Assembly (NCBI GenBank): GCA_944375955.1
Contig: CALWBE010000016.1
Location: forward strand, 9,405-73,404
Origin: an uncultured Clostridia bacterium
Lineage (GTDB): Bacteria > Bacillota > Clostridia > Oscillospirales > CAG-382
Direction of reading: 5' to 3'
Length of the DNA: 64,000 bases
Below the pieces are notes generated by a model. It was not told where the DNA came from, searched no databases, and saw only the letters and a program-made list of their open reading frames with translations. The number at the start of each line of letters is the position of its first letter. Within the stretch, counting starts at the first letter, position 1. Positions 446 to 18,981 of the stretch are shown here, piece by piece. Position numbers and translations under genes: made by a program.

Positions 446-526
446 TAAAGAAAGTGAAAAACTCATTAAGTCCCGTTTTTCTTCATTGCGGTCAAATAAA
501 ACCGCCGCAAAAACAGCGTCAAGTTA

Positions 527-566
527 AAAGCTCCATCAAAAGGCAGAAGTCCTTTGATGGAGCTTT
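527..566. terminator. strong hairpin, probable bidirectional terminator (symporter 3' end / truncated dpaA ORF)
   Basis: GCTCCATCAAAAGG...CCTTTGATGGAGC, a 13-bp stem flanked by A/T runs on both sides. Confidence 0.6.
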
Positions 567-620
567 TATATAAAAATAATATTAGTATAATTAAATATTA
601 TAGACCAGCACGTGCCAATA

Positions 621-2234
621 TCAGTTCTTACCGAGGCATTCGGTAACATCGACTGTAACTTTTTCTTCGTAGCACTCAAACATTTCTTCTACAGATTTTC
701 TATCAAGCTTCTTTGTAAACAGGCTTACCAAAGGCACAAGAATCATTCCCCCAACCATGGCAAATACTCCGGAATACAGTGAGTTTTTAAATACAAATCC
801 CAGTATCCCGCCATTTACGCTTATTGCACCCAAAGATATCAAAAGCTGTATTATTTCAAGTACCGTGCCGTATGCAAAACATACTGCGACAGCTGCTTTA
901 GTAACTCTTTTCCAATAAAGTCCGTAAAGGAACGGGGCAAGAAATGCACCCGCCAGAGCACCCCATGAGACTCCCATCATCTGGGCTATAAAAGTAAAGT
1001 TAAACGTGTCCTTTACAACAGCTATAACTGCCGATACAACAACAAAAAATACGATAAAAAGTCTAAGGATAAAAATTGTTTTCTTTTCGCTTGTTATATT
1101 TTTGCCTTTTTTCTTTAACGCAGGCATTATGACATCAAGGGTAAGTGTTGAACTTGACGTTAAGACAAGAGAGGAAAGAGTTGACATTGATGCTGCAAGG
1201 ACCAACACTATTACAACTGCTATTATAATACCAGGCAGAGTAGAAAGCATTACGGGAATTATATTGTCATTCATTATTTTTCCGCCGCTGTAAAGTTTAT
1301 CTGCAAATTCAGGTGTGTCATACAGCCTTCCGAATCCTCCAAGAAAATAGCACCCGCCTGCAACTATTATTGCAAATACCGTTGAAATTATCGTTCCTTT
1401 TCGTATTGAGTCTTCATTATTTATAGAATAAAACTTTCCTACCATCTGCGGCAATCCCCATGTGCCGAGTGAAGTAAGCAAAACCACAAACAAGAGAAAT
1501 ACCGGATCAGGACCAAAAAACGATGCAAAGGCTCCCTGCATTCCGGCATCCGGATTTGCCGCGTCTAACGGGATCTCTGATAATCTGGTGTACGCCTCTA
1601 TGAATCCACCGTTTGAATTTAATACTGCTGCAACCACCGCAATTATTCCCAAAAGCATTATTATTCCCTGTATGAAGTCATTTATCGCCGTTGCCATATA
1701 TCCGCCGAAAATCACATATAATCCCGTAAGAGCTGCCATAACCGCTATCACTACCCAGTATGGTATTCCAAATGCCATTCCGAACAGGCTTGATAGACCG
1801 TTGTACAATGATGCCGTATATGGTATAAGAAACACAAAAACAATAACAGATGCCGCTATTTTCAAGGCACCGGAATCGTATCTCTTCTCGAAAAAGTCAG
1901 GCATAGTCTTGCTCTCAAGATGCTGTGTCATAACTCTTGTCCTTCTGCCAAGTATCGTCCATGCAAGAAGCGACCCTATAAACGCATTTCCCAATCCAAT
2001 CCATGTAGACGCCAGTCCGAAATTCCATCCAAATTGACCGGCATACCCTACAAAAATAACTGCAGAAAAATATGATGTTCCGAAAGCAAATGCCGTAAGC
2101 CAAGGCCCTACAGATCTACCTCCAAGCACAAAGCCTTCGACATCCTTTGAATGACGCCTGCAGTAAAATCCGACAGCTATCATCACCGCAAAAAATACTA
2201 TCAGCAGAGCTGCCGTTAAAATTTTTGTTTCCAT
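621..2234 (-). CDS. sodium:solute symporter family (SSF, PutP/PanF-like) transporter
   Basis: 537 aa polytopic membrane protein. The N-terminal GGRSVGPWLTAFAFGTSYFSAVIFVGYAGQ region is typical of SSF. Substrate unknown; the upstream Tyr T-box suggests tyrosine or a related compound. Confidence 0.8.
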   Translation of the reverse strand: METKILTAALLIVFFAVMIAVGFYCRRHSKDVEGFVLGGRSVGPWLTAFAFGTSYFSAVIFVGYAGQFGWNFGLASTWIGLGNAFIGSLLAWTILGRRTRVMTQHLESKTMPDFFEKRYDSGALKIAASVIVFVFLIPYTASLYNGLSSLFGMAFGIPYWVVIAVMAALTGLYVIFGGYMATAINDFIQGIIMLLGIIAVVAAVLNSNGGFIEAYTRLSEIPLDAANPDAGMQGAFASFFGPDPVFLLFVVLLTSLGTWGLPQMVGKFYSINNEDSIRKGTIISTVFAIIVAGGCYFLGGFGRLYDTPEFADKLYSGGKIMNDNIIPVMLSTLPGIIIAVVIVLVLAASMSTLSSLVLTSSSTLTLDVIMPALKKKGKNITSEKKTIFILRLFIVFFVVVSAVIAVVKDTFNFTFIAQMMGVSWGALAGAFLAPFLYGLYWKRVTKAAVAVCFAYGTVLEIIQLLISLGAISVNGGILGFVFKNSLYSGVFAMVGGMILVPLVSLFTKKLDRKSVEEMFECYEEKVTVDVTECLGKN

Positions 2235-2280
2235 TTTTATCCCTTCTTTCTTTTATTTTTTATGGAAGACGGATAAATGG

Positions 2281-2575
2281 AAAAAAATACCGTCCTCCGT
2301 TAAGAGGACGGAAAATAATCCGTGTTACCACCTCAATTTACCGATACGTTACCGCAGCGGCCTCATCAGGCACAAAAATCTCATGCCTTATTGCTATAAC
2401 GGGCAAACCCGGCGCAGTCTACTTTTCAGTACTCCATTAATAAGCCTATGGCAGTATCTGTTTTCGGTGCGCAGCTAACAGGATGTATTCGCTTTTGCCT
2501 CTTTACGCTGCCTTACACCTGCCGGAAGCTCTCTTTAGAAAATCAGCAAAGCTACTTGTTCCCGCTCATCGCTTC
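2281..2575 (-). promoter_or_regulatory. T-box riboswitch leader, specifier UAC (Tyr), controlling the SSF transporter
   Basis: The minus-strand leader contains GCGATGAG...AGTA, an AGAGAG box and a GGTGTAA distal loop. The specifier loop is GAA-TAC-A (codon complement at 2485-2487). The T-box is AAATTGAGGTGGTAACACGG; UGGU fits discriminator A73 of tRNA-Tyr. The terminator is CCGTCCTC-loop-GAGGACGG plus a T7 run. Confidence 0.75.
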
Positions 2576-2588
2576 TATATTGTTATGT

Positions 2589-2617
2589 ATTTTACACTTA
2601 AAAATCATTGTTGTCAA
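2589..2617 (-). promoter_or_regulatory. sigma-A type promoter for the T-box/symporter transcript
   Basis: Minus strand: TTGACA (2612-2617), 17-nt spacer, TAAAAT (2589-2594), about 15 nt upstream of T-box stem I. Confidence 0.55.
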
Positions 2618-2677
2618 GTACTTTTTTTATTTTATATATATTATTTTCTTTTTGAATTATAAAAAAATATTTTTTAC

Positions 2678-3586
2678 TTAATCTGAAAGCCTTAATTTTT
2701 TCATTCTTTTTTCAGCCTTTAAAAACAGTTCGCTTTCTACTAACGGCGCATGAGTTCCACAGACTTTATAATACTGCTCCGGACGGCATTTTCTCCGTTT
2801 ATCTGTTTTATAGTTTATTTTCGTTACAAAACCCTGAGTCAAATCTCCTTTATATGTGGGATTTGCAAGTATCCTCTTTATCATCACGGAATTCCATTTA
2901 TTGCTTTTTTGCCTATTGTCGCTTTTCATTCTCGACGGAGTCTTTATTCCGTCCGCAGTAAGTCCGCATGCTATGGCAAGCATGCTTTTTCCCGAAACAA
3001 ATTCAAGAAATATCCTTCGTACAACTCCCGCACAGCGTTCATCAGGTATCAAAAGATTTTTATCTTCTTCTGACTTTTTATATCCGTACGGTGCAGAGCT
3101 TCCTATAAATTTCCCTGCAGCTCTTTTGGAATCAAGCGCGGTCCTTACCTTTCTGCTTATATCCTTGGCATACAAGTCGTTAAATACAGCGCGGAACGGT
3201 ATCATGTCGTTTCCGTATCCGTCCCTCTCTGTATCTATCCCGTCATTTACCGCTATATACCTGATTCCGTTTACCGGAAAAAAACGCTCAATGTACTCTC
3301 CGGTTGCAATATAATCCCTGCCAAGTCTTGACATATCCTTTGTTAAAATAACTTTGAAATTTCCTTTTAATGCATCATTTACCATTCTCTTAAATTCCGG
3401 TCTTTCAAAATTCGTTCCAGTATACCCGTCGTCTATATATATTTCAGCTATCTCAAAGCCATATTTTCGGCAGTAATCTGTCAAAAACAACTTTTGCGAA
3501 AGAATGCTGTCAGATTCGCCGCCTGCTCCGTCGTCTCTTGAAAGGCGCAAATAAAGTGCGGCTTTATTTCCTTTCAATAAAAACAC
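2678..3586 (-). CDS. serine recombinase, large-serine-recombinase type (resolvase catalytic domain + recombinase domain) that ends before the zinc-ribbon/coiled-coil domain
   Basis: AALYLRLSRDDGAGGESDSILSQ contains the catalytic Ser motif of TnpX/TndX/SpoIVCA-like LSRs. DDGYTGTNFERPEFKRM, LTKDMSRLGRDY, IAVNDGIDT, SAPYGYKK and THAPLVESELF mark the recombinase domain. At 302 aa it is short of the ~450-550 aa typical for LSRs. The likely start is TTG at 3577 (GGGAGG SD 8 nt upstream) rather than GTG at 3586. Confidence 0.8.
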   Translation of the reverse strand: MFLLKGNKAALYLRLSRDDGAGGESDSILSQKLFLTDYCRKYGFEIAEIYIDDGYTGTNFERPEFKRMVNDALKGNFKVILTKDMSRLGRDYIATGEYIERFFPVNGIRYIAVNDGIDTERDGYGNDMIPFRAVFNDLYAKDISRKVRTALDSKRAAGKFIGSSAPYGYKKSEEDKNLLIPDERCAGVVRRIFLEFVSGKSMLAIACGLTADGIKTPSRMKSDNRQKSNKWNSVMIKRILANPTYKGDLTQGFVTKINYKTDKRRKCRPEQYYKVCGTHAPLVESELFLKAEKRMKKLRLSD

Positions 3587-3622
3587 CTCCCGAAAAAGCT
3601 CTTTATATACTTATTCGGGAGG
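3586..3622 (-). terminator. hairpin + T-run after proX; its 3' arm contains the recombinase SD
   Basis: Minus strand: CCTCCCGAA-19 nt-TTCGGGAGG followed by TGTTTTTATTG. The GGGAGG in the 3' arm is the only SD for the recombinase TTG/GTG start. Confidence 0.5.
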
Positions 3623-3653
3623 CTTATTTTTAATTCGCGAAAGTAAAACCTTA

Positions 3654-4202
3654 TCAAAGATCTACTACAGTATATGTATGCTTCATGGCAGGTATTATCT
3701 TTTCAATCATATCAAATGTTCGTATACGCAGGCTTGATGTGTTGACACACGGATGGCAACCTATATATTCGCTATTCAGAACATCTCTGTCAATCAGCAG
3801 TCGTACTTTTCCATTTTTGTCATTCATCAGTCCCATAACACTTACCGACCCGGGCGTTACGCCGAGATATTCCTGCATATGTCCGCTGTCCGCAAACGAC
3901 AGCCTTGATGATGATATCTGTGCTGAAAGATCCTTTGTCTTAAAAATCTTATCCTCAGGTATCATAAGCAAATAAAATGATGTCTGCTGTCTGTTGCATA
4001 AAAACAAATTCTTACATATAACTGCATCTAATACCTCATCTATATCCCTGCACACTTCCATTGTCATTGCCGGATCGTGATCAGCACGCCGGTATGAAAT
4101 TCCGAGAGCGTCTAAAAAATCGTATACCCTCATTTCTGTTTCACTGCGTCCTTTTGAATCTAAAGGCCGTCCCTCACACATTTCTATTTTCATTTTTATC
4201 AT
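3654..4202 (-). CDS. YbaK/ProX-type aminoacyl-tRNA editing (prolyl-tRNA synthetase-associated) domain protein
   Basis: VYDFLDALGISYRRADHDPAMTMEV...CKNLFLCNRQ...LGVTPGSVSVMGL...IGCHPCVNTSSL matches the ProX/YbaK fold family. The best-supported start is ATG 4193 (AAGGA 8 nt upstream). Confidence 0.7.
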   Translation of the reverse strand: MIKMKIEMCEGRPLDSKGRSETEMRVYDFLDALGISYRRADHDPAMTMEVCRDIDEVLDAVICKNLFLCNRQQTSFYLLMIPEDKIFKTKDLSAQISSSRLSFADSGHMQEYLGVTPGSVSVMGLMNDKNGKVRLLIDRDVLNSEYIGCHPCVNTSSLRIRTFDMIEKIIPAMKHTYTVVDL

Positions 4203-4632
4203 CCTTATACTTTTTTGTATTTTTTTCTTTTTTATCTTTTCGTTTTATTTTCCATGCATCTTTTTTTATCTTTGCTCTTTCATGCAATTCATGGAGCAGT
4301 CCCAGCGTTTTTTTATCATCCGGAAATATTTTTTTCATAATCAGTATCGATATTGCAATTGTGATTATCTTCTCCGGTGTCATAGGTATCCATAAAAATG
4401 CAATATATGCTCCGGAAACGGCAATCATCCAATGTATTTGAAAAACCGTTCCAAGACCCATCATCAAATATGACCAGCCATTTGTTATAAACCACGCTAT
4501 TCCGAAACATAATAAAAAACGAGGATTAGCTACTAAATAAAACGCTTTTTTCAATATATTTTCAAGGCTTTGCCATTTTATTCTTTTTTTCGTTTTATTT
4601 TTATATGAATCTGAATTTTTTTTTGTTTTCAA
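4174..4632 (-). CDS. hypothetical small membrane protein with Lys-rich termini
   Basis: 152 aa with 2-3 hydrophobic segments (FLLCFGIAWFITNGWSYLMMGLG, IAVSGAYIAFLWIP). No recognisable family. Confidence 0.45.
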   Translation of the reverse strand: MKTKKNSDSYKNKTKKRIKWQSLENILKKAFYLVANPRFLLCFGIAWFITNGWSYLMMGLGTVFQIHWMIAVSGAYIAFLWIPMTPEKIITIAISILIMKKIFPDDKKTLGLLHELHERAKIKKDAWKIKRKDKKEKNTKKYKDDKNENRNV

Positions 4633-4857
4633 AAAGTATTCTTCCTTTTTCTTCGGTATAATATATATATAATGTATTTATACTGTCTTTTTTATTTTTA
4701 TTATATATTATATACTTTGAAATTTCAACATAAATATTAAGTTTTTTCTATCTTCCGAAGATTTTTAAAATTAAGCTATTATTTGCTCTTCTTTTATTGT
4801 TATATCATTTATGATATTACTCTATACTTTTTTAATTATTCCCAAACTCTTATAAGA

Positions 4858-4875
4858 TTGTTAAAATAATAACAA
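4858..4875. promoter_or_regulatory. candidate Rex (redox-sensing repressor) operator upstream of adhE
   Basis: TTGTTAAAATAATAACAA matches the clostridial Rex consensus TTGTTAA-N4-TTAACAA at 13 of its 14 specified positions, 126 nt upstream of the adhE ATG. No rex gene is present in the window. Confidence 0.55.
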
Positions 4876-5000
4876 AGATAAAGCACATTAGGGCGTAATT
4901 GCATTATTGCATTGGTTATAAAGAATATTAATAAAGCTTTAAATGTACTTTTATCAGAAAAGTCAACAAATATATTATAATAAAATGGAGGAACATCATA

Positions 5001-7709
5001 ATGTCAGCACAGTATGAAATCGTCGACAGCGTTGAAAAACTTGAACAGGCTATTGCGAAAGTTAGAAAAGCACAACAGATTTTCGCTACCTATACGCAGG
5101 AACAGGTAGACAAAATTTTTCTTGCCGCTGCGACAGCTGCAAACAAAGCGCGTATACCGCTTGCAAAATTTGCGGTAGAAGAAACAGGTATGGGAGTAGT
5201 TGAAGATAAGGTCATTAAAAATCATTATGCTTCCGAATATATTTACAACGCCTACAAAAACACTAAAACCTGTGGAGTAATCGAGGAAGACAAAGCATAT
5301 GGAATTAAGAAAATTGCAGAACCCGTCGGTGTTATCTGCGCTGTTATTCCGACTACCAATCCAACTTCCACTGCTATTTTTAAAACGCTTATATCGCTCA
5401 AGACACGCAACGGAATTATTATAAGTCCTCATCCGCGTGCAAAACAGTCTACTATTGCTGCTGCAAAGGTAGTCCTTGAAGCTGCAGTAGCTGCTGGAGC
5501 TCCCGATGGAATAATCAGCTGGATAGATATCCCCTCTCTCGAAATGACTAATCTTCTCATGAAAGAAGCAGATATAATTCTTGCAACAGGCGGACCCGGA
5601 ATGGTAAAAGCCGCTTATTCTAGCGGAAAGCCTGCTGTAGGTGTCGGAGCCGGAAATACTCCCGCTATAATCGACGATACGGCCGATATTCTGCTCGCTG
5701 TAAACTCTATCATACATTCAAAAACATTTGACAACGGTATGATATGCGCTTCCGAGCAGTCTGTTATCGTTCTTGAATCTATTTATGACGCCGTTAAAGA
5801 AGAATTCGCTTCACGCGGATGCTATTTCTTAAATCCCGAAGAAACAGAAAAAGTCCGCAAAACTATTATCATTAACGGCGCTCTCAATGCTAAAATAGTA
5901 GGTCAAAAGGCTGCCACCATTGCCAAACTTGCAGGAGTAACGGTTCCGGAAGGCACTAAAATAATTATCGGAGAAGTAGAAAGCGTCGATCTTTCTGAAG
6001 AATTTGCTCATGAAAAACTCTCCCCCGTTCTTGCAATGTATAAGGCAAAAGATATACACGATGCGTTCGAAAAAGCCGAAAGACTTATAGCGGACGGCGG
6101 TTATGGTCACACATCTTCTATTTATCTAAATGCAGTTACGGAAAAAGAAAAGCTTGATGAATTTGCATCTCGCATGAAAACCTGTCGTATACTTGTCAAT
6201 ACTCCCTCTTCCCAGGGCGGTATCGGAGATCTTTACAACTTTAAACTTGCGCCTTCACTTACCCTCGGATGCGGCTCTTGGGGCGGAAACAGTGTTTCTG
6301 AAAACGTTGGCGTAAAACATCTCATTAACATTAAAACCGTTGCCGAGAGGAGAGAAAATATGCTTTGGTTCCGTGCACCTGAAAAAATATATATCAAAAA
6401 AGGCTGTCTGCCGGTCGCCCTTGAGGAACTCAGATCGGTTATGGGCAAAAAACGTGCTTTTATCGTCACTGACAGCTTCCTTTATAAAAACGGATATACG
6501 AAACCTATTACTGATAAACTCGAAGAAATGGGCATCGCTTATACCACTTTCTCAGACGTCGCTCCAGATCCTACACTCGCTTGCGCTAAGGCCGGTGCCG
6601 AACTCATGAGATCCTTCGCTCCTGACTGCATTATTGCTATCGGAGGCGGTTCAGCTATGGATGCCGGAAAAATTATGTGGGTGCTTTATGAACATCCCGA
6701 AGCTGACTTCATGGATATGGCTATGCGCTTCGTTGATATCCGCAAGAGAATTTATACATTCCCGAAAATGGGTGAAAAAGCTTACTTTATCGCCATTCCT
6801 ACTTCAGCAGGTACCGGCTCTGAAGTTACTCCTTTTGCTGTTATAACAGATGAAAAATCCGGCGTTAAATATCCTCTCGCCGATTATGAGCTTCTTCCTA
6901 AAATGGCTATTATTGATGCCGACTTCCATATGACTGCTCCTAAAGGACTTACTGCAGCCTCCGGTATTGATGCTGTTACTCACGCGCTTGAAGCATATGC
7001 TTCTGTAATGGCGACGGATTATACCGATTCTCTCGCTCTGCGCGCTCTTAAAGTTATTTTCGAATATCTTCCTATTGCTTATGAAAACGGTCCCAACGAT
7101 CCTGTCGCTCGTGAAAAAATGGCGAATGCCGCTACTATGGCAGGTATGGCATTTGCTAATGCTTTCCTCGGTGTATGCCACTCGATGGCTCATAAGCTCG
7201 GTGCATTCCATCACCTGCCTCACGGTGTAGCAAATGCCTTAATGATCGATGAGGTACTGCGTTTCAATGCAGCTGAAACCCCTGTTAAAATGGGAACTTT
7301 CTCTCAGTATGATCATCCTCATACTCTCGCGCGCTATGCAGAAGTAGCCGACTATCTCGGAATTCCCGGAAAAACCGACAGTGAAAAACTTGAAAATCTT
7401 ATTGCAGCAATCGATGAACTGAAAGTTAAGGTTGGTATAAAACCGACAATAAAAGATTATGTCGCAGATGAAAAAGACTTCCTCGATCGTCTTGATGAAA
7501 TGACTGAACAGGCATTTGACGACCAATGCACCGGCGCAAATCCGCGTTATCCGCTTATGAGCGAAATAAAACAAATGTATCTTAATGCTTATTACGGCAA
7601 AAAATTTGTGGAACTTCCTACTCCGGATGAACGTCAACTTGAATCAAATGATGATGCGCATGATATCAAAAAGCCCTACCGCAAAGCAAAAAACGGCATG
7701 AAGAAATAA
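5001..7709 (+). CDS. adhE: bifunctional acetaldehyde-CoA/alcohol dehydrogenase AdhE
   Basis: 902 aa. It has an N-terminal ALDH domain (PTTNPTSTAIFK, MICASEQS) plus a C-terminal Fe-ADH domain (GGGSAMDAGK, HSMAHKLG). RBS GGAGG lies upstream. Confidence 0.95.
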   Translation: MSAQYEIVDSVEKLEQAIAKVRKAQQIFATYTQEQVDKIFLAAATAANKARIPLAKFAVEETGMGVVEDKVIKNHYASEYIYNAYKNTKTCGVIEEDKAYGIKKIAEPVGVICAVIPTTNPTSTAIFKTLISLKTRNGIIISPHPRAKQSTIAAAKVVLEAAVAAGAPDGIISWIDIPSLEMTNLLMKEADIILATGGPGMVKAAYSSGKPAVGVGAGNTPAIIDDTADILLAVNSIIHSKTFDNGMICASEQSVIVLESIYDAVKEEFASRGCYFLNPEETEKVRKTIIINGALNAKIVGQKAATIAKLAGVTVPEGTKIIIGEVESVDLSEEFAHEKLSPVLAMYKAKDIHDAFEKAERLIADGGYGHTSSIYLNAVTEKEKLDEFASRMKTCRILVNTPSSQGGIGDLYNFKLAPSLTLGCGSWGGNSVSENVGVKHLINIKTVAERRENMLWFRAPEKIYIKKGCLPVALEELRSVMGKKRAFIVTDSFLYKNGYTKPITDKLEEMGIAYTTFSDVAPDPTLACAKAGAELMRSFAPDCIIAIGGGSAMDAGKIMWVLYEHPEADFMDMAMRFVDIRKRIYTFPKMGEKAYFIAIPTSAGTGSEVTPFAVITDEKSGVKYPLADYELLPKMAIIDADFHMTAPKGLTAASGIDAVTHALEAYASVMATDYTDSLALRALKVIFEYLPIAYENGPNDPVAREKMANAATMAGMAFANAFLGVCHSMAHKLGAFHHLPHGVANALMIDEVLRFNAAETPVKMGTFSQYDHPHTLARYAEVADYLGIPGKTDSEKLENLIAAIDELKVKVGIKPTIKDYVADEKDFLDRLDEMTEQAFDDQCTGANPRYPLMSEIKQMYLNAYYGKKFVELPTPDERQLESNDDAHDIKKPYRKAKNGMKK

Positions 7710-7716
7710 GATATAA

Positions 7717-8481
7717 GTGAGGAGAACGAACATGAAACTTGACAGAGTTATTGCAGTTAGAAACAACAAAACCGTATACCGCGACGGCGATAAATGTATC
7801 AAAGTGTTTAACGAAGAATATTCAAAAGCTGACGTTCTCAACGAAGCTCTTAATCAGGCTCGTATTGAAGAGACCGGCTTGCTTATTCCGAGAATTCTTG
7901 AAGTTACCATGATAGACGGGAAATGGGCTATTGTATCTGATTATATTAAAGGAAAAACTCTTGCACAGATTATGCAGGAGGATCCTGATAACAAAAACAA
8001 ATATATTGAGCAGCTTGTTGATCTACAGATTTTGATGCATTCAAAAACCTGCCCGCTTCTTAACAAGCTGAAAGATAAAATGAACCGCAAGATAAGTCAG
8101 GCTGAACTTGACGCAACGACACGTTATGATCTTCATACGCGCCTTGAAGGAATGCCTAAACACAACAAAGTTTGTCATGGCGACTTTAACCCCTCAAATA
8201 TTATTGTCGACGAAAACGGCAAAATGTATATTATTGACTGGGCGCATGCGACTCAAGGTAATGCTTCCGCCGATGCTGCAAGAACTTACCTGCTCTTCTG
8301 GCTGGACGGCGACATTGAAAGCGCAAACACATATCTTGATCTTTTCTGCAAAAAGAGCGATACGGCAAAACAATATGTTCAGAAATGGATGCCTATTGTC
8401 GCTGCTTCTCAGTCTGTAAAAGGCAATCAAAAAGAGCGCGAGTTTCTGCTTTCATGGGTAGATGTCGTTGATTATGAATAA
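7717..8481 (+). CDS. APH/choline-kinase-fold phosphotransferase (protein-kinase-like)
   Basis: HGDFNPSNIIVDENGKMYIIDW carries the HxDxxxxN catalytic loop plus the IDW metal-binding motif of the aminoglycoside phosphotransferase/ChoK family. It starts 8 nt after adhE. Confidence 0.7.
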   Translation: MRRTNMKLDRVIAVRNNKTVYRDGDKCIKVFNEEYSKADVLNEALNQARIEETGLLIPRILEVTMIDGKWAIVSDYIKGKTLAQIMQEDPDNKNKYIEQLVDLQILMHSKTCPLLNKLKDKMNRKISQAELDATTRYDLHTRLEGMPKHNKVCHGDFNPSNIIVDENGKMYIIDWAHATQGNASADAARTYLLFWLDGDIESANTYLDLFCKKSDTAKQYVQKWMPIVAASQSVKGNQKEREFLLSWVDVVDYE

Positions 8482-8502
8482 TTATTTTCGGAGGATATAC
8501 AA

Positions 8503-8742: not shown

Positions 8743-8746
8743 GCTT

Positions 8747-9007: not shown

Positions 9008-9013
9008 CCGTAA

Positions 9014-11855: not shown

Positions 11856-11867
11856 GGAGTATAATAA

Positions 11868-13292
11868 ATGAGAAAATTTGATACCAAGGTACAGTATCTT
11901 AAATATAAGGTTCTGCGTGAAGTTGCAAGGCAAGCCTGGAACGACACTCTTCTCGACAATGTTCTTGAAATTCCTAAAAAGATAGTTCCGGGAAAAACGC
12001 CGACTATGCGTTGCTGCGTCTATAAAGAACGTGCAATACTTTCGGAACGAGTACATCTTGCCATGGGCGGAAATAAAGAAAATCCGAATGTTATTGAGGT
12101 AATAGAAATCGCCTGCGATGAATGTCCGGCTGCCGGATATTCTGTTACCGATTCATGCAGAGGCTGTCTTGCTCATAGGTGTGAAGATGTCTGCAAGCGC
12201 GGAGCAATATCGTTTGATCACAACCATGTTGCTCATATCGATAAAACAAAGTGCGTCGAATGCGGTATGTGTGCTAAAGTTTGTCCTTATACCGCCATTA
12301 TAAATCGCAAACGTCCTTGTCAGAATGCATGCAAAATACACGCAATTTCTATCAATGAAGAAAACGCAGCTACAATAGACAATGAAAAGTGCACTTCATG
12401 CGGTGCATGCGTTTATCAATGTCCTTTCGGTGCTATCAGCGATAAATCTTACATCTTGAATGTTATAGATATGCTGAAAAAAAGCTGTGAAGGTAAAAAT
12501 TATAAGATGTATGCAATAGTCGCTCCATCTATTTCAAGCCAGTTCAATTATGCAAAACTCGGTCAGGTAATAACCGGTCTTAAAAAGCTTGGATTCTTTA
12601 CCGTGGTTGAAGCTGCTCTCGGAGCAGATATGGTCGCGCAAGCCGAATCAAAAGAACTTTATGAAAAAGGTTTTCTGACAAGTTCTTGTTGCCCTGCTTT
12701 TGTATCTTATATTAAATCGAATTTTCCTGCTCTTGTTCAATATATTTCTCATAATCTTTCTCCTATGGCTACTATCGCAAAATATATAAAGGAAACAGAC
12801 AAAACTGCAAAAACTGTATTTATTGGTCCTTGTACGGCAAAAAAAGCTGAAATCCAGCTTGATACCGTAAAACCATATATAGATTCGGTAATGACATTTG
12901 AGGAACTTCAGGCTCTTTTTGACAGCCGCGACATAGACATAACTACTCTTGAAGAAAGTATCCTTGACAACGCGTCATATTTCGGAAGAATATTCGCCAG
13001 AAGCGGAGGGCTTTCTGATGCCGTGGCACAAGGTCTTATCGAACAAGGACTTACAGATTTTAAATTAAAGGCATGCGCCTGCGACGGAATAGAAGCCTGC
13101 CGCACCGCTTTACTCAAAAAAAGCAAAAATGTGCTTGACGCAAACTTTATTGAAGGCATGGCATGTGTAGGAGGCTGCATAGGAGGCGCCGGATGTCTGA
13201 CTCACGGCGAAAAAAACAAAGATGAGGTAGACAAATACGGAAAAGAAGCTTATGAAAAAACAATAACAGAAGCTATTTCAGTTCTTAAATAG
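11868..13292 (+). CDS. [FeFe]-hydrogenase, monomeric group-B-like catalytic subunit
   Basis: It has ferredoxin Cys clusters and the H-cluster motifs TSSCCPAF, FIGPCTAKKAE and GMACVGGCIGGAGC. The N-terminus MRKFDTKVQYLKYKVLREV is typical of the B-type family. Confidence 0.85.
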   Translation: MRKFDTKVQYLKYKVLREVARQAWNDTLLDNVLEIPKKIVPGKTPTMRCCVYKERAILSERVHLAMGGNKENPNVIEVIEIACDECPAAGYSVTDSCRGCLAHRCEDVCKRGAISFDHNHVAHIDKTKCVECGMCAKVCPYTAIINRKRPCQNACKIHAISINEENAATIDNEKCTSCGACVYQCPFGAISDKSYILNVIDMLKKSCEGKNYKMYAIVAPSISSQFNYAKLGQVITGLKKLGFFTVVEAALGADMVAQAESKELYEKGFLTSSCCPAFVSYIKSNFPALVQYISHNLSPMATIAKYIKETDKTAKTVFIGPCTAKKAEIQLDTVKPYIDSVMTFEELQALFDSRDIDITTLEESILDNASYFGRIFARSGGLSDAVAQGLIEQGLTDFKLKACACDGIEACRTALLKKSKNVLDANFIEGMACVGGCIGGAGCLTHGEKNKDEVDKYGKEAYEKTITEAISVLK

Positions 13293-13490
13293 TAATCTCC
13301 AAGTTTATTTTCTAAAACCAATGCTTCAAATATTATGGTTTATTTGATTTAAAATATAAAATCCGTGTATACTTTAAAAGCATACACGCATTTATTTTAT
13401 TGAAAAAACAGCATTTAATTTATATTGACTTTTTAAAATATAAAGAATAAAATATATCCGACAGAAATATTTTCGGAGGTTAACTAAGTT

Positions 13491-14777
13491 ATGGTTTATT
13501 CTAAGAATCTGACAGAAAAATATAATGTAGATATATTTGTTGCCGGAGGCGGAGCTGCAGGTGTGGCAGCTGCCATTGCCGCATCTAAGCAAGGTAAATC
13601 TGTATTTCTTGCCGAGGCAACAGGAGCGTTTGGCGGACTTGGAACCTCAGGCTTGGTTCCGTCTTTTGCGCCGTTCGGAGACGGAATTAATATGCTTGCT
13701 TCCGGTATAGGTCTTGATATAAGAAAAAAAGTTTCCAAAGCTTTTCCTATCGATATCTACTGGGCTCCCATAAACGCCGAAGAACTGAAACGTGTATACG
13801 ATGATGAAATGATTTCTGCAGGTGTTGAATTCTCTTTTTTCACGACAGTATGTGATGTCGTGGTATCAGACGGTCATATTGACTATGTAGTATGCACTGC
13901 AAAATCCGGCATGTTTGCGGTGAAGGCTAAAATTTACATAGACTGCACCGGAGACGGAGATCTTTGTTATCTCGGCGGAGGGGACTACACTGTCGGAGAG
14001 GGTGACGGAAAAGTCATGCCCGGAACTTTATGCAGTCTTTGGGCTAATATCGACTGGTCAAATGTAAGCGGACCTCAAAATGCTTTTATTGAAAAGGCAT
14101 ACTCAGATGGTGTGCTTTCATATGAAGATCGTCATCTTCCCGGCATGTTTAAAAGAGATGATCTTCTCGGAGGCGGAAATATAGGTCATCTTTTCAATAT
14201 TGATCCAACTGACGAAAAATCTCTTACCAACTCTATGATATGGGGCAGAAAGTCGATGCTCGAATACGAGCGCTATTACAAAAAATATCTTAAAGGTTTT
14301 GAAAATATGATATTATGCGCTACCGGTTCTGTGCCCGGTGTCAGAGAATCAAGACGTATCACTTGCGACTATGCTCTTTGTGTTGATGATTTTATCAGCC
14401 GTGCCGTTTTTGAAGATGAAATAGGCAGATATTGCTATCCGGTAGATATACACGTTATGAATACTGATAAAAAGGAATATGAGAGATTTAGCAATGAGTA
14501 TGAAAATTTAAGATATAAGCAGGGTGAATCGTATGGTATACCATACAGAAGTCTTATATCAAAATCGTTTTCCAATCTGCTTACCGCCGGTAGATGCATG
14601 GGTACTGACAGAAAAATGCAGGCTTCAATACGCGTAATGCCGGGATGCTTTATTACAGGTCAGGCAGCAGGAGCTGCCGCTGCTCTCGCATCAAACTGCG
14701 GTGACGTCCGAAAAATCAACCATTCTTTGTTAGTTTCAGAGCTTAAAAAATTAGGTGCTTTTCTACCTAATGCATAG
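13491..14777 (+). CDS. FAD-dependent oxidoreductase
   Basis: N-terminal dinucleotide fold DIFVAGGGAAGVAAAIAASKQGKSVFLAE. 428 aa. Confidence 0.7.
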   Translation: MVYSKNLTEKYNVDIFVAGGGAAGVAAAIAASKQGKSVFLAEATGAFGGLGTSGLVPSFAPFGDGINMLASGIGLDIRKKVSKAFPIDIYWAPINAEELKRVYDDEMISAGVEFSFFTTVCDVVVSDGHIDYVVCTAKSGMFAVKAKIYIDCTGDGDLCYLGGGDYTVGEGDGKVMPGTLCSLWANIDWSNVSGPQNAFIEKAYSDGVLSYEDRHLPGMFKRDDLLGGGNIGHLFNIDPTDEKSLTNSMIWGRKSMLEYERYYKKYLKGFENMILCATGSVPGVRESRRITCDYALCVDDFISRAVFEDEIGRYCYPVDIHVMNTDKKEYERFSNEYENLRYKQGESYGIPYRSLISKSFSNLLTAGRCMGTDRKMQASIRVMPGCFITGQAAGAAAALASNCGDVRKINHSLLVSELKKLGAFLPNA

Positions 14778-14813
14778 AATTAAAAATTAGGTGCTTATTC
14801 TACCTATTGCATA
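14743..14813 (+). repeat. tandem ~35-bp duplication of the 3' end of the FAD oxidoreductase gene
   Basis: TTAAAAAATTAGGTGCTTTTCTACCTAATGCATA (14743-14776) is followed by TTAAAAATTAGGTGCTTATTCTACCTATTGCATA (14780-13). Confidence 0.8.
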
Positions 14814-15123
14814 AAATTTAAAACCAAGCAATACAATATTGAACTTTTTTGAGTTCCTTTTCGACGTTTTGTTCTCAATAGAAATCATTGAATGTTTAAA
14901 TGAATAGCCCAATAATTATATTTAATTTGGAAAGGTGATGATATAATAAGAGCAAAAGTAATTGGTATCTTACTCATATTGTGGACATTCTTGGTATTCT
15001 GATGGAACTAATAATGTTTGAGAATATTGGTATTGCTTGCATATTGGAGGCATAAAGGGGTTTGCTGTCTGGCATTGGCTTTGTGTCTTATACATCGAAA
15101 TAAATAATAAAGGAGAAATTAAA

Positions 15124-16041
15124 ATGAAAAGAACATTATCAGTTATCCTGGCAATTATTTTAGCTATGTCATTGTTAGCGTGCAGTAGTTATTCTGATGA
15201 AGACATTAAGGAGCCATCTAATGTTGCTACTGGCAGCAACGCTGGAGAAGGACAGAAGCAAGAGCAAGTAGAGGAAACAGAGGTACCTGAGGAAACAGAA
15301 GTAACTATTAATGAGACCGTTCTTGTTGATGAGGCTGGCATAAAAGTTACTGCTAAAAGCCTTGAAGTTGACGGGATTTTTGGTCCCGAAATCAAACTGC
15401 TTATTGAGAATAATTCTGGTAAAGACCTAACTTTCCAATGTCGCAATGCTTCCGTTAATGGCTACATGGTTGAAACCATGATGTCTGTTGATGTTGTGAA
15501 TGGTAAGAAAGCAAATGATAGTTTAACTTTTATGAAATCCGATTTTGAGGCGTGTGGGATTGAAAAAATTGCTGATATGGAAATTGCATTCCATATTTTT
15601 GATATGGCTGAATGGGAAACTTATTTGGATACTGCCTCAATCCAGATCAAGACTTCTATCGCTGATAACTTTGAGTACACCTATGATGATAGCGGAGATT
15701 TGGCCTATGAAGGAAATGGTATAAAGATTATAATCAAGGGACTTGCAGAAAATGAATCCATATTTGGTCCCAGCATCGTGACTTATATTGAAAACACTGG
15801 AGATAAGGATATAACTGTCCAAACAAGAGATGTATCCATTAATGGATTTATGGCGTCTGCCATATTCTCCTGCGATGTACTTGCAGGCAAACGTGCCGTG
15901 GATACTATTACTTTCATGGAGTCTGACCTTGAGGAAAATGAAATTACTGCGATTGAGGATATAGAACTGTCATTCCATATTTTTGACTCTGATGACTGGA
16001 AAACTATTGTTGATACAGAAATCGTAAAAATTAGCTTCTGA
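15124..16041 (+). CDS. lipoprotein with two tandem copies of an uncharacterised ~110-aa domain
   Basis: AAAGGAG RBS lies before ATG 15124. The signal peptide MKRTLSVILAIILAMSLLA-CSS has a lipobox. An acidic linker is followed by repeat A (15319-15651) and repeat B (15697-16038), which are mutually alignable. Confidence 0.7.
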   Translation: MKRTLSVILAIILAMSLLACSSYSDEDIKEPSNVATGSNAGEGQKQEQVEETEVPEETEVTINETVLVDEAGIKVTAKSLEVDGIFGPEIKLLIENNSGKDLTFQCRNASVNGYMVETMMSVDVVNGKKANDSLTFMKSDFEACGIEKIADMEIAFHIFDMAEWETYLDTASIQIKTSIADNFEYTYDDSGDLAYEGNGIKIIIKGLAENESIFGPSIVTYIENTGDKDITVQTRDVSINGFMASAIFSCDVLAGKRAVDTITFMESDLEENEITAIEDIELSFHIFDSDDWKTIVDTEIVKISF

Positions 16042-16200
16042 TAAGATATAAAACAAAGCTCCACCATTTCGGGTGTAGTCTCGTTTTATATTCAAAGAAT
16101 AAATTTACATTAGATTTTGGATTTTAGTCTAAGGGAACACAAAAGGAAATTGAGTGTTTTGAATTGCTTTTTAAAATAATATTTATGATTTAATATAAAA

Positions 16201-16233
16201 AATCCGCAGCAAAATAAAAATTTGCTGCGGATT
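16201..16233. terminator. bidirectional terminator between the lipoprotein gene and serS
   Basis: AATCCGCAGCAAA-loop-TTTGCTGCGGATT flanked by A-run and T-run. Confidence 0.7.
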
Positions 16234-16241
16234 TTTGTATT

Positions 16242-17528
16242 TTATTTTTTAGGAATTATTTTTTCAGCTCCTCCCATATACGGGCGAAGAGCAACAGGAA
16301 TATTTACGCTTCCGTCTTCATTAAGGTTATTTTCAAGAAATGCTATAAGCATTCTTGGAGGTGCAACAACTGTATTGTTGAGTGTATGAGCAAGATATTT
16401 TGAATTCTTTCCGCTTACACGGATCTTTAATCTTCTTGCCTGCGCATCTCCGAGATTCGAGCAGCTTCCGACCTCAAAATATTTCTTTTGTCTCGGCGAC
16501 CATGCCTCAACATCAAGTGATTTTACTTTAAGATCGGCAAGATCTCCCGAACAGCATTCAAGCGTTCTTACAGGAATATCCATAGAGCGGAAAAGGTCGA
16601 CTGTATTGCGCCACAATTTTTCAAACCACATCGGACTTTCCTCGGGTTTGCATACTACAATCATTTCCTGCTTTTCAAACTGGTGTATGCGGTAAACTCC
16701 GCGCTCTTCTATGCCGTGCGCTCCCTTCTCCTTACGGAAACACGGCGAATAGCTTGTCAGCGTCTGCGGAAGCTGTTCCTCCGGAATTATCTGATCAATA
16801 AACTTTCCTATCATAGAATGCTCTGAAGTACCTATAAGATAAAGGTCTTCTCCTTCTATCTTATACATCATAGCTTCCATTTCGGCAAAACTCATAACTC
16901 CGGTAACAACATCCGAACGAATCATAAACGGAGGTACACAATAGGTAAAACCGCGGTTTATCATAAAATCACGCGCATATGAAATAACTGCCGAATGCAG
17001 TCTTGCTATATCGCCCATAAGATAATAAAACCCGTTGCCGGCAACACGGCGCGCACTGTCAAGATCTATACCGTCAAAGCGTTCCATTATATCAGTATGA
17101 TACGGAATTTCAAAATCGGGCACAACCGGGTCCCCGAACTTCTCTATCTCTACATTCTCGCTGTCGTCTTTTCCTATCGGCACTGACGGATCTATTATCT
17201 GAGGTATTACCATCATTATTTTCTTGATTTTTTCTTCGTATTCCGACTCAAGCGCTTCGCATTCCGCAAGACGCGCCGCCTGCTCGTTAACTTTTTTCTT
17301 CATTTCTTCGGCTTCTTCTTTTTTACCCTGCCCCATAAGCGCGCCGATCATCTTTGAGCATTTGTTACGGTCTGCCCTGAGTCCGTCGGCTTCAAGCTTT
17401 ACAGCACGGGATTTCGCATCAAGCTCAATAACTTCATCTACCAAAGGCAGCTTTGAGTCCTGAAACTTATTTCTGATATTTTGTTTTACAGCGTCCGGAT
17501 TTTCACGCAAAAATTTAATGTCTATCAT
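16242..17528 (-). CDS. serS: seryl-tRNA synthetase
   Basis: 428 aa. MIDIKFLRENPD..., an N-terminal coiled-coil arm and a class II core (TSEHSMIG, FRKEKGAHG, GSCSNLGDAQARR). Confidence 0.95.
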   Translation of the reverse strand: MIDIKFLRENPDAVKQNIRNKFQDSKLPLVDEVIELDAKSRAVKLEADGLRADRNKCSKMIGALMGQGKKEEAEEMKKKVNEQAARLAECEALESEYEEKIKKIMMVIPQIIDPSVPIGKDDSENVEIEKFGDPVVPDFEIPYHTDIMERFDGIDLDSARRVAGNGFYYLMGDIARLHSAVISYARDFMINRGFTYCVPPFMIRSDVVTGVMSFAEMEAMMYKIEGEDLYLIGTSEHSMIGKFIDQIIPEEQLPQTLTSYSPCFRKEKGAHGIEERGVYRIHQFEKQEMIVVCKPEESPMWFEKLWRNTVDLFRSMDIPVRTLECCSGDLADLKVKSLDVEAWSPRQKKYFEVGSCSNLGDAQARRLKIRVSGKNSKYLAHTLNNTVVAPPRMLIAFLENNLNEDGSVNIPVALRPYMGGAEKIIPKK

Positions 17529-17597
17529 TTTTGTTCCTCCAAAAAATATTTTTTATTTTACACTATAACGGCTTGTGAGTTTTACAACGGCATATAT

Positions 17598-17858
17598 AAA
17601 AAATCAGAGTCCTTCCCTATATTGTAATGGGACGAAAGACTCCGTGTTGCCACCCATATTGCCGCACAATATTTCTATTTTAACAAATACTAATGCTAAT
17701 ACTAATAATGCGGCCTCTCATTTTACGCGCTGTAAGGGGCGCCTCCCGAAACTCTTCGCTTCATGCTCCGAAAGTGGAAAAGGTAAACTGTGCCAACTGT
17801 TTGCACCTCACACAGCCTCTCTTAAGACAATAATTTACCGTTTCTTTCATCATAGCTT
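17598..17858 (-). promoter_or_regulatory. T-box riboswitch leader, probable specifier UCC (Ser), controlling serS
   Basis: Minus strand: GCTATGATGAAAG...GGTAAA, AGAGAG and GGTGCAA. The specifier loop is UUUUCCA (codon complement at 17776-17778). The T-box is AATATGGGTGGCAACACGG; UGGC fits discriminator G73 of tRNA-Ser. A terminator hairpin plus T6 follows. Confidence 0.7.
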
Positions 17859-17956
17859 TATTATTATACATTATATGCTTTAAAAATGCAATAGAGTGCA
17901 TTAATTTTATACTAAATGTAACAATTTGTGCCCAATTTTATATATTATTCCTTATT

Positions 17957-18901
17957 TTAGTCCTTTATATACTCCCTTTTTGTCAGACAAAGTTCTGTTA
18001 TAAATCTTCTGTCAAGCTCAGTAAGCTTATAATCATTTCGGTATATAAGCACGTCCTTATATATTTTTTTATTATCCGGAAAGCTCCTTTGTTCCAGTCC
18101 ATATTTATTAAGTACTTTCTCAGGCACCGGTGATACCCACATAAATGCGTCTTTATTATGCGACAGTATCTCAAGTTCGCTCGCCCGTTCAAAAACATAT
18201 ATTCGGCGTATTATATCATCCGGAAGTTCTTCCTTCTTTACCTGAGCCATTGAAAGCGAAGGAACATATGGGTCTCCGTGTGCAATCTCTATATATGGCC
18301 TCAAATCTGAATATCTGATCTCATCCTTTCCTGCTAAAGGGTTTTCTTTATTTATAAGCAAAACATATTGAAATTCTGTAACAAGCTCATAATACAACCC
18401 CTTTTCTTCAAGCATTTCCTTAAAATATCCTTCATGTTTTTCTGCATATCTTATTATACCTAATTTATAATCCATCTGAAGTATATTGTTTAGTGTCCTT
18501 GACGAATTTGTTTCCTTATACATGAGTTCTGCCGGTTCAGCGCTCAATGAAGTCGAAAATCTTGCGAATGCCTCGGAAATATAACAAGCCCGCGGCACTG
18601 AAATCGAAAATCTTTGCTTCAGCGGTCTACCAGCTTTATACATGTTTTCAACATCATCTATCTGACTTAATATCTTTTTTGCATATCCTATAAATTCTTC
18701 ACCTTGAGGAGTTAAAACCATTCCTTTTGCCGATCTGTCAAATATTGTTATTCCAAGATCGCTTTCCAGTTCTTTTATGGAGCGGCTGAGGTTCGGCTGA
18801 GCAATAAGAAGCGTTTCGGAAGCTTTGTTTATTGAGCCGACTCTTGCTACCTCTACGGCATATTTCATATGAAGTATATTCAAAATTTTTCTGCCTTTCA
18901 T
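17957..18901 (-). CDS. LysR-family transcriptional regulator
   Basis: N-terminal wHTH LHMKYAVEVARVGSINKASETLLIAQPNLSRSIKELE plus a substrate-binding domain. An alternative TTG start at 18883 would give the canonical LysR N-terminus. Confidence 0.8.
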   Translation of the reverse strand: MKGRKILNILHMKYAVEVARVGSINKASETLLIAQPNLSRSIKELESDLGITIFDRSAKGMVLTPQGEEFIGYAKKILSQIDDVENMYKAGRPLKQRFSISVPRACYISEAFARFSTSLSAEPAELMYKETNSSRTLNNILQMDYKLGIIRYAEKHEGYFKEMLEEKGLYYELVTEFQYVLLINKENPLAGKDEIRYSDLRPYIEIAHGDPYVPSLSMAQVKKEELPDDIIRRIYVFERASELEILSHNKDAFMWVSPVPEKVLNKYGLEQRSFPDNKKIYKDVLIYRNDYKLTELDRRFITELCLTKREYIKD

Positions 18902-18956
18902 GTTTATTGAAACAAGTATATCATATTATAATTTTTTTTTCAATACCGCAGCATTT

Positions 18957-18981
18957 AAAACCTGCGGGGGTGGATTTTAAA
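18957..18981 (+). repeat. right junction repeat (candidate attR core)
   Basis: AAA CCT GCG GGG GTG GAT TTT AAA is the partner of 416-439. It has the dyad AAAACC-N9-GGATTTT (18957-18978). Confidence 0.6.

Follow-up and report, generated by a model that had tools for sequence, protein, structure and literature searches.

The 64,000-nucleotide stretch of DNA analysed here (contig CALWBE010000016.1 of an uncultured Clostridia bacterium of the chicken gut, positions 9,405 to 73,404; hereafter the window) carries the sporulation gene dpaA (spoVFA) as two fragments separated by 18.5 kb of other DNA. This arrangement raises the question of whether dpaA was lost to a rearrangement or is rebuilt in sporulating cells by removal of the intervening DNA. 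The reading that we favour, with reasonable though not high confidence, is that positions 429–18970 of the window form a sporulation-gene intervening element of the skin/gin kind, which has long been fixed in dpaA of an Oscillospiraceae lineage, has accumulated host genes and is proposed to be excised in the mother cell. A shortened serine recombinase encoded inside the element probably carries out the excision when the mother cell sporulates.

The interruption falls within a codon stretch reading KPYG/VDF (the slash marks the break; window 428 and 18970). The open reading frame (ORF) at 2–445 is the 5' part of dpaA, which runs on the plus strand to the codons for KPYG (2–428), ends ...ELASKPYG and continues through five foreign codons (AGFKF) to a stop. 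The complete 5' product, read on the identical contig L012, has 253 aa, of which 248 codons are genuine dpaA sequence by translation, Pfam matches (DpaA_N and 2-Hacid_dh_C) and alignment with intact and split DpaA proteins. The 3' part (18970–19113, plus strand) consists of 47 codons, (G)VDFKTAEK...GLPGK...GFTV and a stop, without a start codon or ribosome-binding site of its own. It leads into dpaB (spoVFB; 19110–19670, plus strand; Pfam Flavoprotein, 93 bits), the start of which overlaps the dpaA stop (ATGA). The interrupted coding sequence belongs to an operon whose expression, according to the literature on other organisms, takes place in the mother cell and depends on sigma-K. The crossover maps to a G-run at 425–428 on the left and 18966–18970 on the right, and removal would take out 18,542 bp (429–18970). 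An earlier note on this DNA, made from the sequence alone, had placed the limits at 446 and 18957, close to these crossovers but only approximately.

Both junctions recur base for base in more than 20 independent metagenome contigs (including L002–L019) from different studies and assemblers, mostly of chicken gut. These contigs were found by exact-protein look-up, using a LysR-type regulator, the dpaA 3' part and dpaB for the right junction and the dpaA 5' part, an SSF-family symporter and the recombinase for the left. The left junction is also crossed unbroken by Logan contigs of four chicken-gut runs. Because the junctions recur in independent assemblies and in unbroken Logan contigs, misassembly, a concern of the earlier note, is excluded for this segment. 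An assembly or binning artefact might be suspected from the metagenome-type source and the low depth in public runs, but it has next to no probability given these recurrences and the same architecture in other species. We also considered a JGI contig (L009) that starts exactly at the right-hand CGGGGG (its positions 1–20) as a sign of a mixed population and rejected it, as it opens with sequence of the integrated form. Its start may be due to chance or to an assembly break at a nearby CCGCAG/CTGCGG inverted repeat.

The junctions can be read as the left and right attachment (att) sites of a site-specific recombinase. They share an in-frame imperfect repeat around the G-run (TACGGGGCGGGTTTTAAA in the left junction, CTGCGGGGGTGGATTTTAAA in the right one). 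The left site, attL (411–443, plus strand), comprises a B arm (411–424), the G-run core (425–428) and a P' arm (429–443, with GGTTTTAAAT at 431–440), and the same junction is found in six other species. By sequence and comparison, attR (18953–18984, plus strand) comprises the P arm ATTTAAAACC (18953–18962), the G-run core (18966–18970) and the B' arm TGGATTTTAAAACC (18971–18984). Across the seven species attL reads TA[CT]GGGG/[CA]GG..TTTAA and attR reads TTTAAAA.C...CGGGG/TGGAT. Joining the outer halves at the shared G-run restores the frame precisely. The rebuilt attB, ...AAGCCCTACGGGGTGGATTTTAAA..., encodes KPYGVDFK and is like the site of intact relatives such as L048 (TACGGAGTGGAT). The predicted attB junction is ...CCCTACGGGGTGGATTTT..., and the 40-mers spanning the two joints are GCTTCAAAGCCCTACGGGGTGGATTTTAAAACCGCTG (attB) and GCATTTAAAACCTGCGGGGGCGGGTTTTAAATTTTGA (attP).

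The rebuilt attP is a near-perfect dyad, ATTTAAAACC-TGCGGGGGCG-GGTTTTAAAT in the window (spacer N10) and TTTAAAACCCG-GCGGGG-CGGGTTTTAAA in the relative L023 (spacer N6), and its arms are palindromic in each species. Up to ~14 bp from the centre, all four half-sites resemble TT(T/C)AAA(A/G)CC. The GG at the centre lacks symmetry, and two directly oriented sites would therefore give a deletion.

Loci of relatives, gathered by searches with the rebuilt DpaA and with the recombinase, place the window's element in a wider group. A core of 5.0–6.0 kb occupies the same dpaA codon in the genomes of at least six further species (L020, L021 and L023–L026; metagenome-assembled genomes of Oscillospiraceae or Eubacteriales), in the order dpaA 5' part, SSF symporter gene, T-box leader, recombinase gene, proX, orf152, serS (seryl-tRNA synthetase), T-box leader, dpaA 3' part and dpaB. 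The more distant L133 and L131 retain at least the dpaA 5' part followed by the symporter gene. Furthermore, all of ~18 DpaA clusters with 48–72% identity to the rebuilt protein cease to be DpaA at KPYG and continue into unrelated tails. Intact DpaA relatives read KPYG[VI]DF; in the split ones the sequence before KPYG is conserved and the tail diverges at once. In L048, an intact dpaA-dpaB pair lies next to the same upstream genes (ACPS, a SpoU methylase, a LUD domain protein and a small ORF), and this locus represents the empty site.

Compared to the core, the window has an additional ~11.5 kb (adhE to a lipoprotein gene) between orf152 and serS, and a LysR gene between the serS promoter and leader and attR. 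The suggestion of the earlier note that a small recombinase element had been expanded is therefore supported by relatives that hold the 5–6 kb core only. The recent expansion did not bring in serS, which lies in the conserved core of every species of the clade. Because the relatives' core has serS and not the adhE/hydrogenase block, the comparison identifies serS as part of the old core and the block as a recent addition. Phage genes, whose presence with the segment in relatives would have spoken against the note, were seen in none of them.

The divergence of these genes bears on the age of the insertion. In pairwise codon comparisons of the window with the six relatives, synonymous divergence (dS) is saturated for every gene (third-position identity 0.32–0.54), whereas nonsynonymous divergence (dN) is 0.04–0.05 for serS, 0.18–0.21 for the symporter gene, 0.21–0.25 for dpaB, 0.27–0.35 for proX and 0.29–0.33 for the recombinase gene. 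By this measure the divergence of the core is comparable to that of dpaB, the host gene beside it. The recombinase, serS and both dpaA halves are under purifying selection while their synonymous sites are saturated. Indeed, the 47-codon dpaA 3' fragment is 55–62% identical in six split relatives and has no stop or frameshift, though it lacks a start codon; such conservation at saturated dS is not expected of untranslated DNA. The presence of the insertion in all strains seen and in several species, at saturated dS, indicates that it is fixed. The att sites, the recombinase and the two halves of dpaA nevertheless remain under purifying selection, which speaks for ongoing excision and against a dead rearrangement. 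The two alternatives of the earlier note, an excising element and a fixed rearrangement, thus do not exclude each other: the insertion is fixed, yet the selection pattern points to excision that continues.

The same data bear on whether the element is still a mobile island that moves horizontally with its cargo and reached several species by recent transfer. Related full-length enzymes do occur in dpaA of distant Clostridia with other cargo, and the split state does not fall in a single place on the DpaA tree, the resolution of which is poor. However, within the short-recombinase clade every core gene is as diverged as dpaB at saturated dS, the upstream host synteny is shared, and the well-supported branches of the DpaA tree are compatible with a single origin. 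Pfam and PHROGs scans of the element found no transfer or replication genes. Its composition also equals that of the host: the GC content is 0.390 inside the element and 0.391 in the rest of the window, and codon usage matches as well, leaving none of the foreign signature for which the earlier note had proposed to look. Recent horizontal transfer is, in our view, very improbable.

The element encodes its own site-specific recombinase, the gene for which is kept in all cores. In the window it is a serine recombinase of 302 aa (2678–3586, minus strand) with the Pfam domains Resolvase (80 bits) and Recombinase (PF07508; 72 bits, residues 186–297). The catalytic domain has the invariant motifs YLRLSRDD and SRLGRD and matches that of TnpX (2mhc; E value 2.5e-31). 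The protein ends at the border between the Recombinase and zinc-ribbon domains and is without zinc ribbon or coiled coil: the ORF stops at residue 302, with no Pfam match to PF13408 there. Profile matches also stop at position 282 of 542 in CcrB, and SprA (9dxh) is matched over 35–295 of 545. The length is 296–306 aa in the six relatives, and R14, S16, R87 and R90 are invariant.

Full-length enzymes are the closest kin of this protein outside its own group. Among the best 150 representatives of 1.8 billion proteins, nearly all have 480–550 aa and three have ~300 aa. P0125, which has 497 aa, includes PF13408 and is 55% identical, is the full-length enzyme nearest to the window's recombinase. 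It lies in the split dpaA of a distant Clostridia genome, at the same KPGG/VDF site and the same G-run, with adhE and an APH-like kinase gene as its only cargo. A scan with P0125 revealed many more split dpaA loci, including one in Clostridium viride DSM 6836. In a tree of 98 N-terminal regions, built with a quick method, one clade (SH-aLRT 96) contains 26 recombinases, 23 of which adjoin a split dpaA, full-length enzymes of 497–539 aa among them. The other three are on contigs without dpaA detected in the flanks, two of which are very short. The seven short enzymes form a sub-clade (support 100), and another short enzyme (L270, 284 aa) arose separately in the tree. This phylogeny assigns the window's recombinase to an apparently dpaA-dedicated clade of large serine recombinases.

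A protein reduced to these two domains may not suffice for excision. In this case excision would be real, but the missing function of the zinc ribbon and coiled coil would have to come from another locus, in the form of a full-length recombinase or a separate DNA-binding partner, or a directionality factor would still be needed. All characterised sporulation elements use a full-length enzyme with such a factor, as in GirC/GirX (PMC5595907) and SprA/SprB (PMC5499854), and clostridial genomes have many COG1961 paralogues (bioRxiv 10.1101/2022.02.25.481979). An integrase deprived of its coiled coil is, furthermore, a poor enzyme. Against these points, the 64-kb window contains no displaced zinc-ribbon or coiled-coil remnant, no separate gene for one and no split recombinase gene (best match E value 0.02, in Cys-rich Fe-S proteins). 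Nor do all seven cores share a small ORF beside the recombinase as a candidate directionality factor, orf152 being missing in L020, although no search dedicated to such factors was made. The conservation of att half-sites only to ~14 bp from the centre would also fit binding by the recombinase domain alone. We therefore regard the need for a further protein as unlikely.

Expression of the recombinase may be under tight control. A terminator-like hairpin (3575–3640, minus strand; folding energy –23.5 kcal/mol, z –5.4), conserved in seven species, lies after proX and before the recombinase gene. Its 3' arm holds the Shine-Dalgarno sequence of the recombinase (GGGAGG), followed by a U-run and a TTG start, and its loop has a conserved AT-rich motif, (C)ATAAGTAT(T/A)TAA. 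This layout suggests that read-through from proX would be terminated and the ribosome site masked, and that a transcript starting inside the loop would be translatable. As a sigma-E or sigma-K promoter in the loop we tried the conserved CATAAGTATTTAA, which resembles a CATA-type –10 element but fits neither consensus cleanly, and we keep it as a lead only.

The proposed excision can be pictured as follows. In the mother cell, the ~300-aa recombinase would pair attL with attR, exchange strands at the GG dinucleotide of the shared G-run and release an 18.5-kb non-replicating circle. KPYG would then be joined to VDF, a full-length DpaA would become possible, and dpaA and dpaB would form a single operon again. 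The forespore and spore would keep the element, and the circle with serS would stay in a cell bound to lyse. If excision is confined to a terminal cell, the DNA between the att sites may be of any kind, and host genes may have built up there over long times as the conserved core and, later, as adhE, the putative H2-sensing hydrogenase module and LysR in the window's species. With a presumably essential gene such as serS inside, loss of the element or excision in vegetative cells would be lethal. Such lethality would hold the element in place and favour cells in which the recombinase is tightly repressed; the hairpin sequestering the Shine-Dalgarno sequence is consistent with such repression. 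Furthermore, a recombinase without the coiled coil may need no directionality factor, because the coiled coil blocks the attL × attR reaction in full-length enzymes. For example, the full-length LI integrase (Int) gave no product on attL × attR, and a version without the coiled coil (Int-deltaCC) gave some deletion product (PMC5499577).

Several observations weigh against excision by the short enzyme. We know of no serine recombinase without the zinc-ribbon domain that acts on att-type sites. The integrase without its coiled coil is inefficient (PMC5499577). The recombinase gene also has no confidently recognised sporulation-specific promoter. Among 5.8 billion proteins there was no intact DpaA above 72% identity to the rebuilt one, and the JGI metagenome contigs held no joined attB (a degenerate pattern gave 0 matches; a looser pattern gave 102 stretches, 0 of them dpaA). 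The Logan contigs (X1–X4), at 3–10x, have the integrated form only, without a joint between 428 and 18971, and contigs from runs labelled as RNA-Seq (X25 and X27) cross attR in the integrated form at 2–3x depth. Assembled contigs of low depth cannot detect a rare mother-cell product, so the negatives for the excised form carry little weight. Decay of the recombinase does occur, as in a sister species (L131 8844–9900 and L132 8033–8797; DpaA 73% and SSF 82% identical) it lacks the first ~54 codons, including the catalytic serine. The shortened gene abuts a DUF6017 gene, a second insertion that probably killed the system there.

Such decay would be general if the split is dead, that is, if a fixed rearrangement never excises, dpaA is a pseudogene or works through its 248-aa N-terminal part alone, and the recombinase is a decaying remnant. 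The loss of half of a normal large serine recombinase, the lack of an excised form in public data and the disrupted gene of the sister species fit this account, as does the finding that some clostridia make dipicolinic acid (DPA) without DpaAB (bioRxiv 10.1101/2022.02.25.481979). It is difficult to reconcile with a startless 47-codon fragment that is 55–62% identical and stop-free across seven species at saturated dS. The recombinase also keeps its length and catalytic residues with dN low relative to dS, the attP arms are palindromic in each species, and the tail after KPYG diverges at once next to conserved sequence. A dead split is rather unlikely on this evidence. Separate translation of the dpaA 3' part was likewise considered: all species have GTG as the V codon, but the G-run that abuts it leaves no Shine-Dalgarno spacing and no upstream promoter is evident, and we retain this idea only as part of the dead-split account.

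The favoured reading, an excised intervening element, can be compared with known systems. Published targets of intervening elements are sigK, spsM, spoVFB, spoVR, gerE and yabG, and our literature search found no report of a split dpaA/spoVFA. The premise of the earlier note that known elements are prophages or their remnants is too strong, as the gin element in gerE is non-phage (PMC5595907) and there are skin elements of 2.6 kb with two genes (bioRxiv 10.1101/2022.02.25.481979). Like the dpaA element, gin of Bacillus cereus ATCC 10987 is a non-phage element within a mother-cell sporulation gene, with inverted-repeat arms around a short core in its att sites and its own serine recombinase (PMC5595907). 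Excision of gin was shown by experiment to rebuild the frame, whereas the dpaA element is known from sequence. The two also differ in their targets (gerE and dpaA) and enzymes: GirC is a full-length protein of 58 kDa that needs the 6.5-kDa GirX, and the ~300-aa dpaA enzyme has no zinc ribbon, no coiled coil and no factor candidate found. Furthermore, gin has additional recombinases, a composite-mobile look and a limited strain distribution, unlike the dpaA core, which is conserved with its host at saturated dS and has housekeeping cargo.

The vfbin element in spoVFB (dpaB) of Bacillus weihenstephanensis KBAB4, as summarised in papers that cite it (Abe et al. 2013, cited in PMC4191935 and PMC6957869), also interrupts the dipicolinate synthase operon and makes DPA dependent on a mother-cell rearrangement. 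In those summaries it splits the gene of the B subunit and is described with phage-related genes in Bacillus; here the split gene encodes the A subunit, the recombinase clade is a dedicated one of Clostridia and the cargo is non-phage. The skin elements in sigK (SpoIVCA/Skr in B. subtilis and CD1231/CD1234 in C. difficile; PMC5025042, bioRxiv 10.1101/2022.02.25.481979) are similarly long-standing, vertically kept and retained in the spore genome, with one recombinase lineage tied to one target and cargo that varies by host. The dpaA element differs from them in its truncated recombinase, the gene for which lies 2.2 kb inside and behind a T-box-regulated transporter gene, and in having an aminoacyl-tRNA synthetase gene in its conserved core. 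With the large serine recombinases A118/LI Int, phiC31 Int and SprA (PMC5499577, PDB 9dxh), the dpaA enzyme has in common a catalytic domain, an alpha-E region and a recombinase domain as well as the dyad symmetry of att sites around a 2-bp crossover, and its nearest kin is full-length (55%, 497 aa). It differs from them in having neither the coiled coil, by which directionality is set, nor the domain with which the outer att positions are recognised.

The cargo of the element is of host type. PHROGs found no capsid, tail, portal, terminase, lysis or replication genes between the dpaA halves, and the sole phage-type match is that of the recombinase to an integrase profile. Metabolic and housekeeping genes are what Pfam and NCBIfam recognise there, so the content is not that of a prophage or a remnant of one. 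On this point the earlier note was accurate, both in finding host-type rather than phage genes between the dpaA halves and in its gene list, which included a T-box-regulated serS; Pfam, NCBIfam, Rfam and PHROGs bear it out.

Between the dpaA 5' part and the symporter gene, the first gene of the core, lies a perfect 16-nt inverted repeat with T/A runs (I25; 525–568), which is predicted to terminate transcription in both directions. The symporter (621–2234, minus strand) is an SSF sodium:solute symporter (Pfam SSF, 181 bits), PutP/PanF-like below the NCBIfam equivalog cut-offs and 72–82% identical in the relatives' core. Its T-box leader (2301–2578, minus strand; Rfam RF00230) scores 104.1 bits, above the gathering threshold of 93, and contains GAAUACA in all seven species, which suggests a Tyr (UAC) specifier. 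The symporter scores best, below cut-off, against proline and pantothenate symporters despite the Tyr specifier, and it may be a tyrosine-responsive transporter. Beyond the recombinase gene and its hairpin lie proX (3654–4202, minus strand), which encodes a protein with a YbaK/ProX-type aminoacyl-tRNA trans-editing domain (Pfam tRNA_edit, 76.6 bits; 63–66% identical in relatives), and orf152 (4174–4632, minus strand), a core gene in most relatives. The orf152 product has a hydrophobic N-terminus and a Lys-rich tail and matches no family in Pfam, NCBIfam or PHROGs.

The last core gene, serS (16242–17528, minus strand), encodes a canonical seryl-tRNA synthetase by its whole-protein TIGR00414 score (407.1 bits; cut-off 301.65). 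Its T-box leader (17625–17862, minus strand) scores 85.7 bits (E value 9e-19), below the threshold of 93, yet it is a full-length RF00230 match with the GGGUGG antiterminator box, and UUUUCC(A/G)C is its predicted Ser (UCC) specifier. SerS is 92.5–93.9% identical within the clade (dN 0.04–0.05, dS saturated) and 82–88% identical to its counterparts in 80 further genomes of Clostridia, among them Blautia, Roseburia, Lachnospira and Ruminococcus. At none of these 80 loci does serS lie near dpaA or a recombinase gene. Recent transfer was considered as the cause of the 93% identity and rejected: third positions are only 46–53% identical with dS saturated, and the protein is 82–88% identical across Clostridia families anyway. 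Directly next to attR, the relatives have the serS promoter (TTGCAA-N17-TATAAT), and the window instead has the promoter of the LysR-type regulator gene (17957–18901, minus strand; Pfam HTH_1). This regulator is specific to the window's species and not found in the relatives' cores. In L020 (13189–13300), serS has no T-box leader and just a 112-nt promoter region abutting attR.

The lineage-specific block of 11.5 kb (5001–16041, plus strand), which is not in the cores of L020, L021 and L023–L026, starts with adhE (5001–7709) and an APH-like kinase gene (7717–8481), both assigned by Pfam and NCBIfam. It continues with genes for two thioredoxin-like [2Fe-2S] proteins (8503–9007), a HydS-like sensor protein (9014–10690), a PP2C phosphatase (10683–11855), a group-B [FeFe] hydrogenase (11868–13292; TIGR04105, 562 bits), an FAD oxidoreductase (13491–14777) and a lipoprotein with the lipobox LLAC (orf334; 15037–16041). 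A scan for inverted and direct repeats found no convincing repeats or insertion sequence ends around the block. The lipoprotein gene is present or absent among strains, being missing in L003, L007 and L008; its product is internally duplicated with two domains, and a direct repeat (D4) lies at 15568 and 15952. The adhE and kinase pair was met three times: in the window (5001–8481), in L236 (4038–7468) and in L118 (12053–15500). The distant dpaA element in L236 has no cargo other than the pair, which shows 77% and 60% identity to the genes of the window. L118 is Lachnospira multipara, in which the pair adjoins serS and there is no element.

Other dpaA elements also carry host genes, which differ by lineage. 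A 4.2-kb element in L238 (6667–8493) has only a full-length recombinase gene and a GlmS-type gene (GATase and two SIS domains, 608 aa). The cargo is MatE and SulP in L270; altronate dehydratase and a mannitol-dehydrogenase-family enzyme (uxaA/uxaB), a GDSL lipase and AraC in L240; SfsA, an N-acetyltransferase and glycerate kinase in L249 (C. viride); and an aldo/keto reductase in L260. Non-phage metabolic or housekeeping cargo is therefore the rule for this family and not an oddity of the window. With its glmS, L238 also adds a second example of a dpaA element that harbours a usually essential gene. In L249 (C. viride DSM 6836; 5056–10518) and L240 (3575–16200), dpaA is in three pieces, with a second, unrelated serine recombinase element inside its 5' part in addition to the one at KPGG/VDF.

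We tentatively combine these observations into one claim, which is bolder as a whole than the reading of the window by itself and about which we are correspondingly more doubtful. A recombinase clade may be dedicated to one dpaA codon in Clostridia, and the intervening DNA may be a piece of chromosome eliminated from the soma, retained in the germline and open to any host gene, even an essential one (serS here and glmS in L238). The window's enzyme, pared down to catalytic and recombinase domains, may be a natural excision-only recombinase that works on sites of ~30 bp free of a directionality factor, and a captured essential gene would make the element unlosable and vegetative excision lethal.

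If excision takes place as proposed, dpaA would join the genes rebuilt by programmed DNA excision in sporulation and would apparently be a common target in gut Clostridia; C. viride DSM 6836 is a cultured carrier, which makes the idea testable at the bench. The distinctive features here are a new target with a dedicated recombinase clade, a conserved housekeeping core and a truncated enzyme. Intervening elements would then need to be neither phage remnants nor recent arrivals and, once fixed, could hold canonical housekeeping genes for very long times, which bears on how mobile elements turn into permanent parts of chromosomes. A naturally occurring, conserved serine recombinase devoid of the zinc ribbon and coiled coil also bears on the origin of directionality and, if active, could provide a compact excision tool. 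For annotation, dpaA serves as a sporulation marker, and a split copy is scored as absent or pseudogenised.

We also identified related arrangements at other loci. In L031 (3208–5323) and L032, a short serine recombinase of 286 aa with the same truncation at the domain border overlaps the end of a 430-aa ORF with FeoB_N only, outside dpaA. Full-length relatives outside the dpaA clade adjoin a C-terminal fragment of a polysaccharide deacetylase or a 103-aa PG_binding_1 ORF (L027 5302–5778, L029 9654–9965 and L030 9642–9956), and these loci may be further split cortex genes. Downstream of the element, the window's segment 19700–47400 looks inverted compared to the relatives L020 and L021: there, PFK, glgB and glgC follow directly after dpaB on the same strand, whereas in the window PFK (46303–47373), glgB, glgC/D, glgA and glgP are 27 kb away on the opposite strand.

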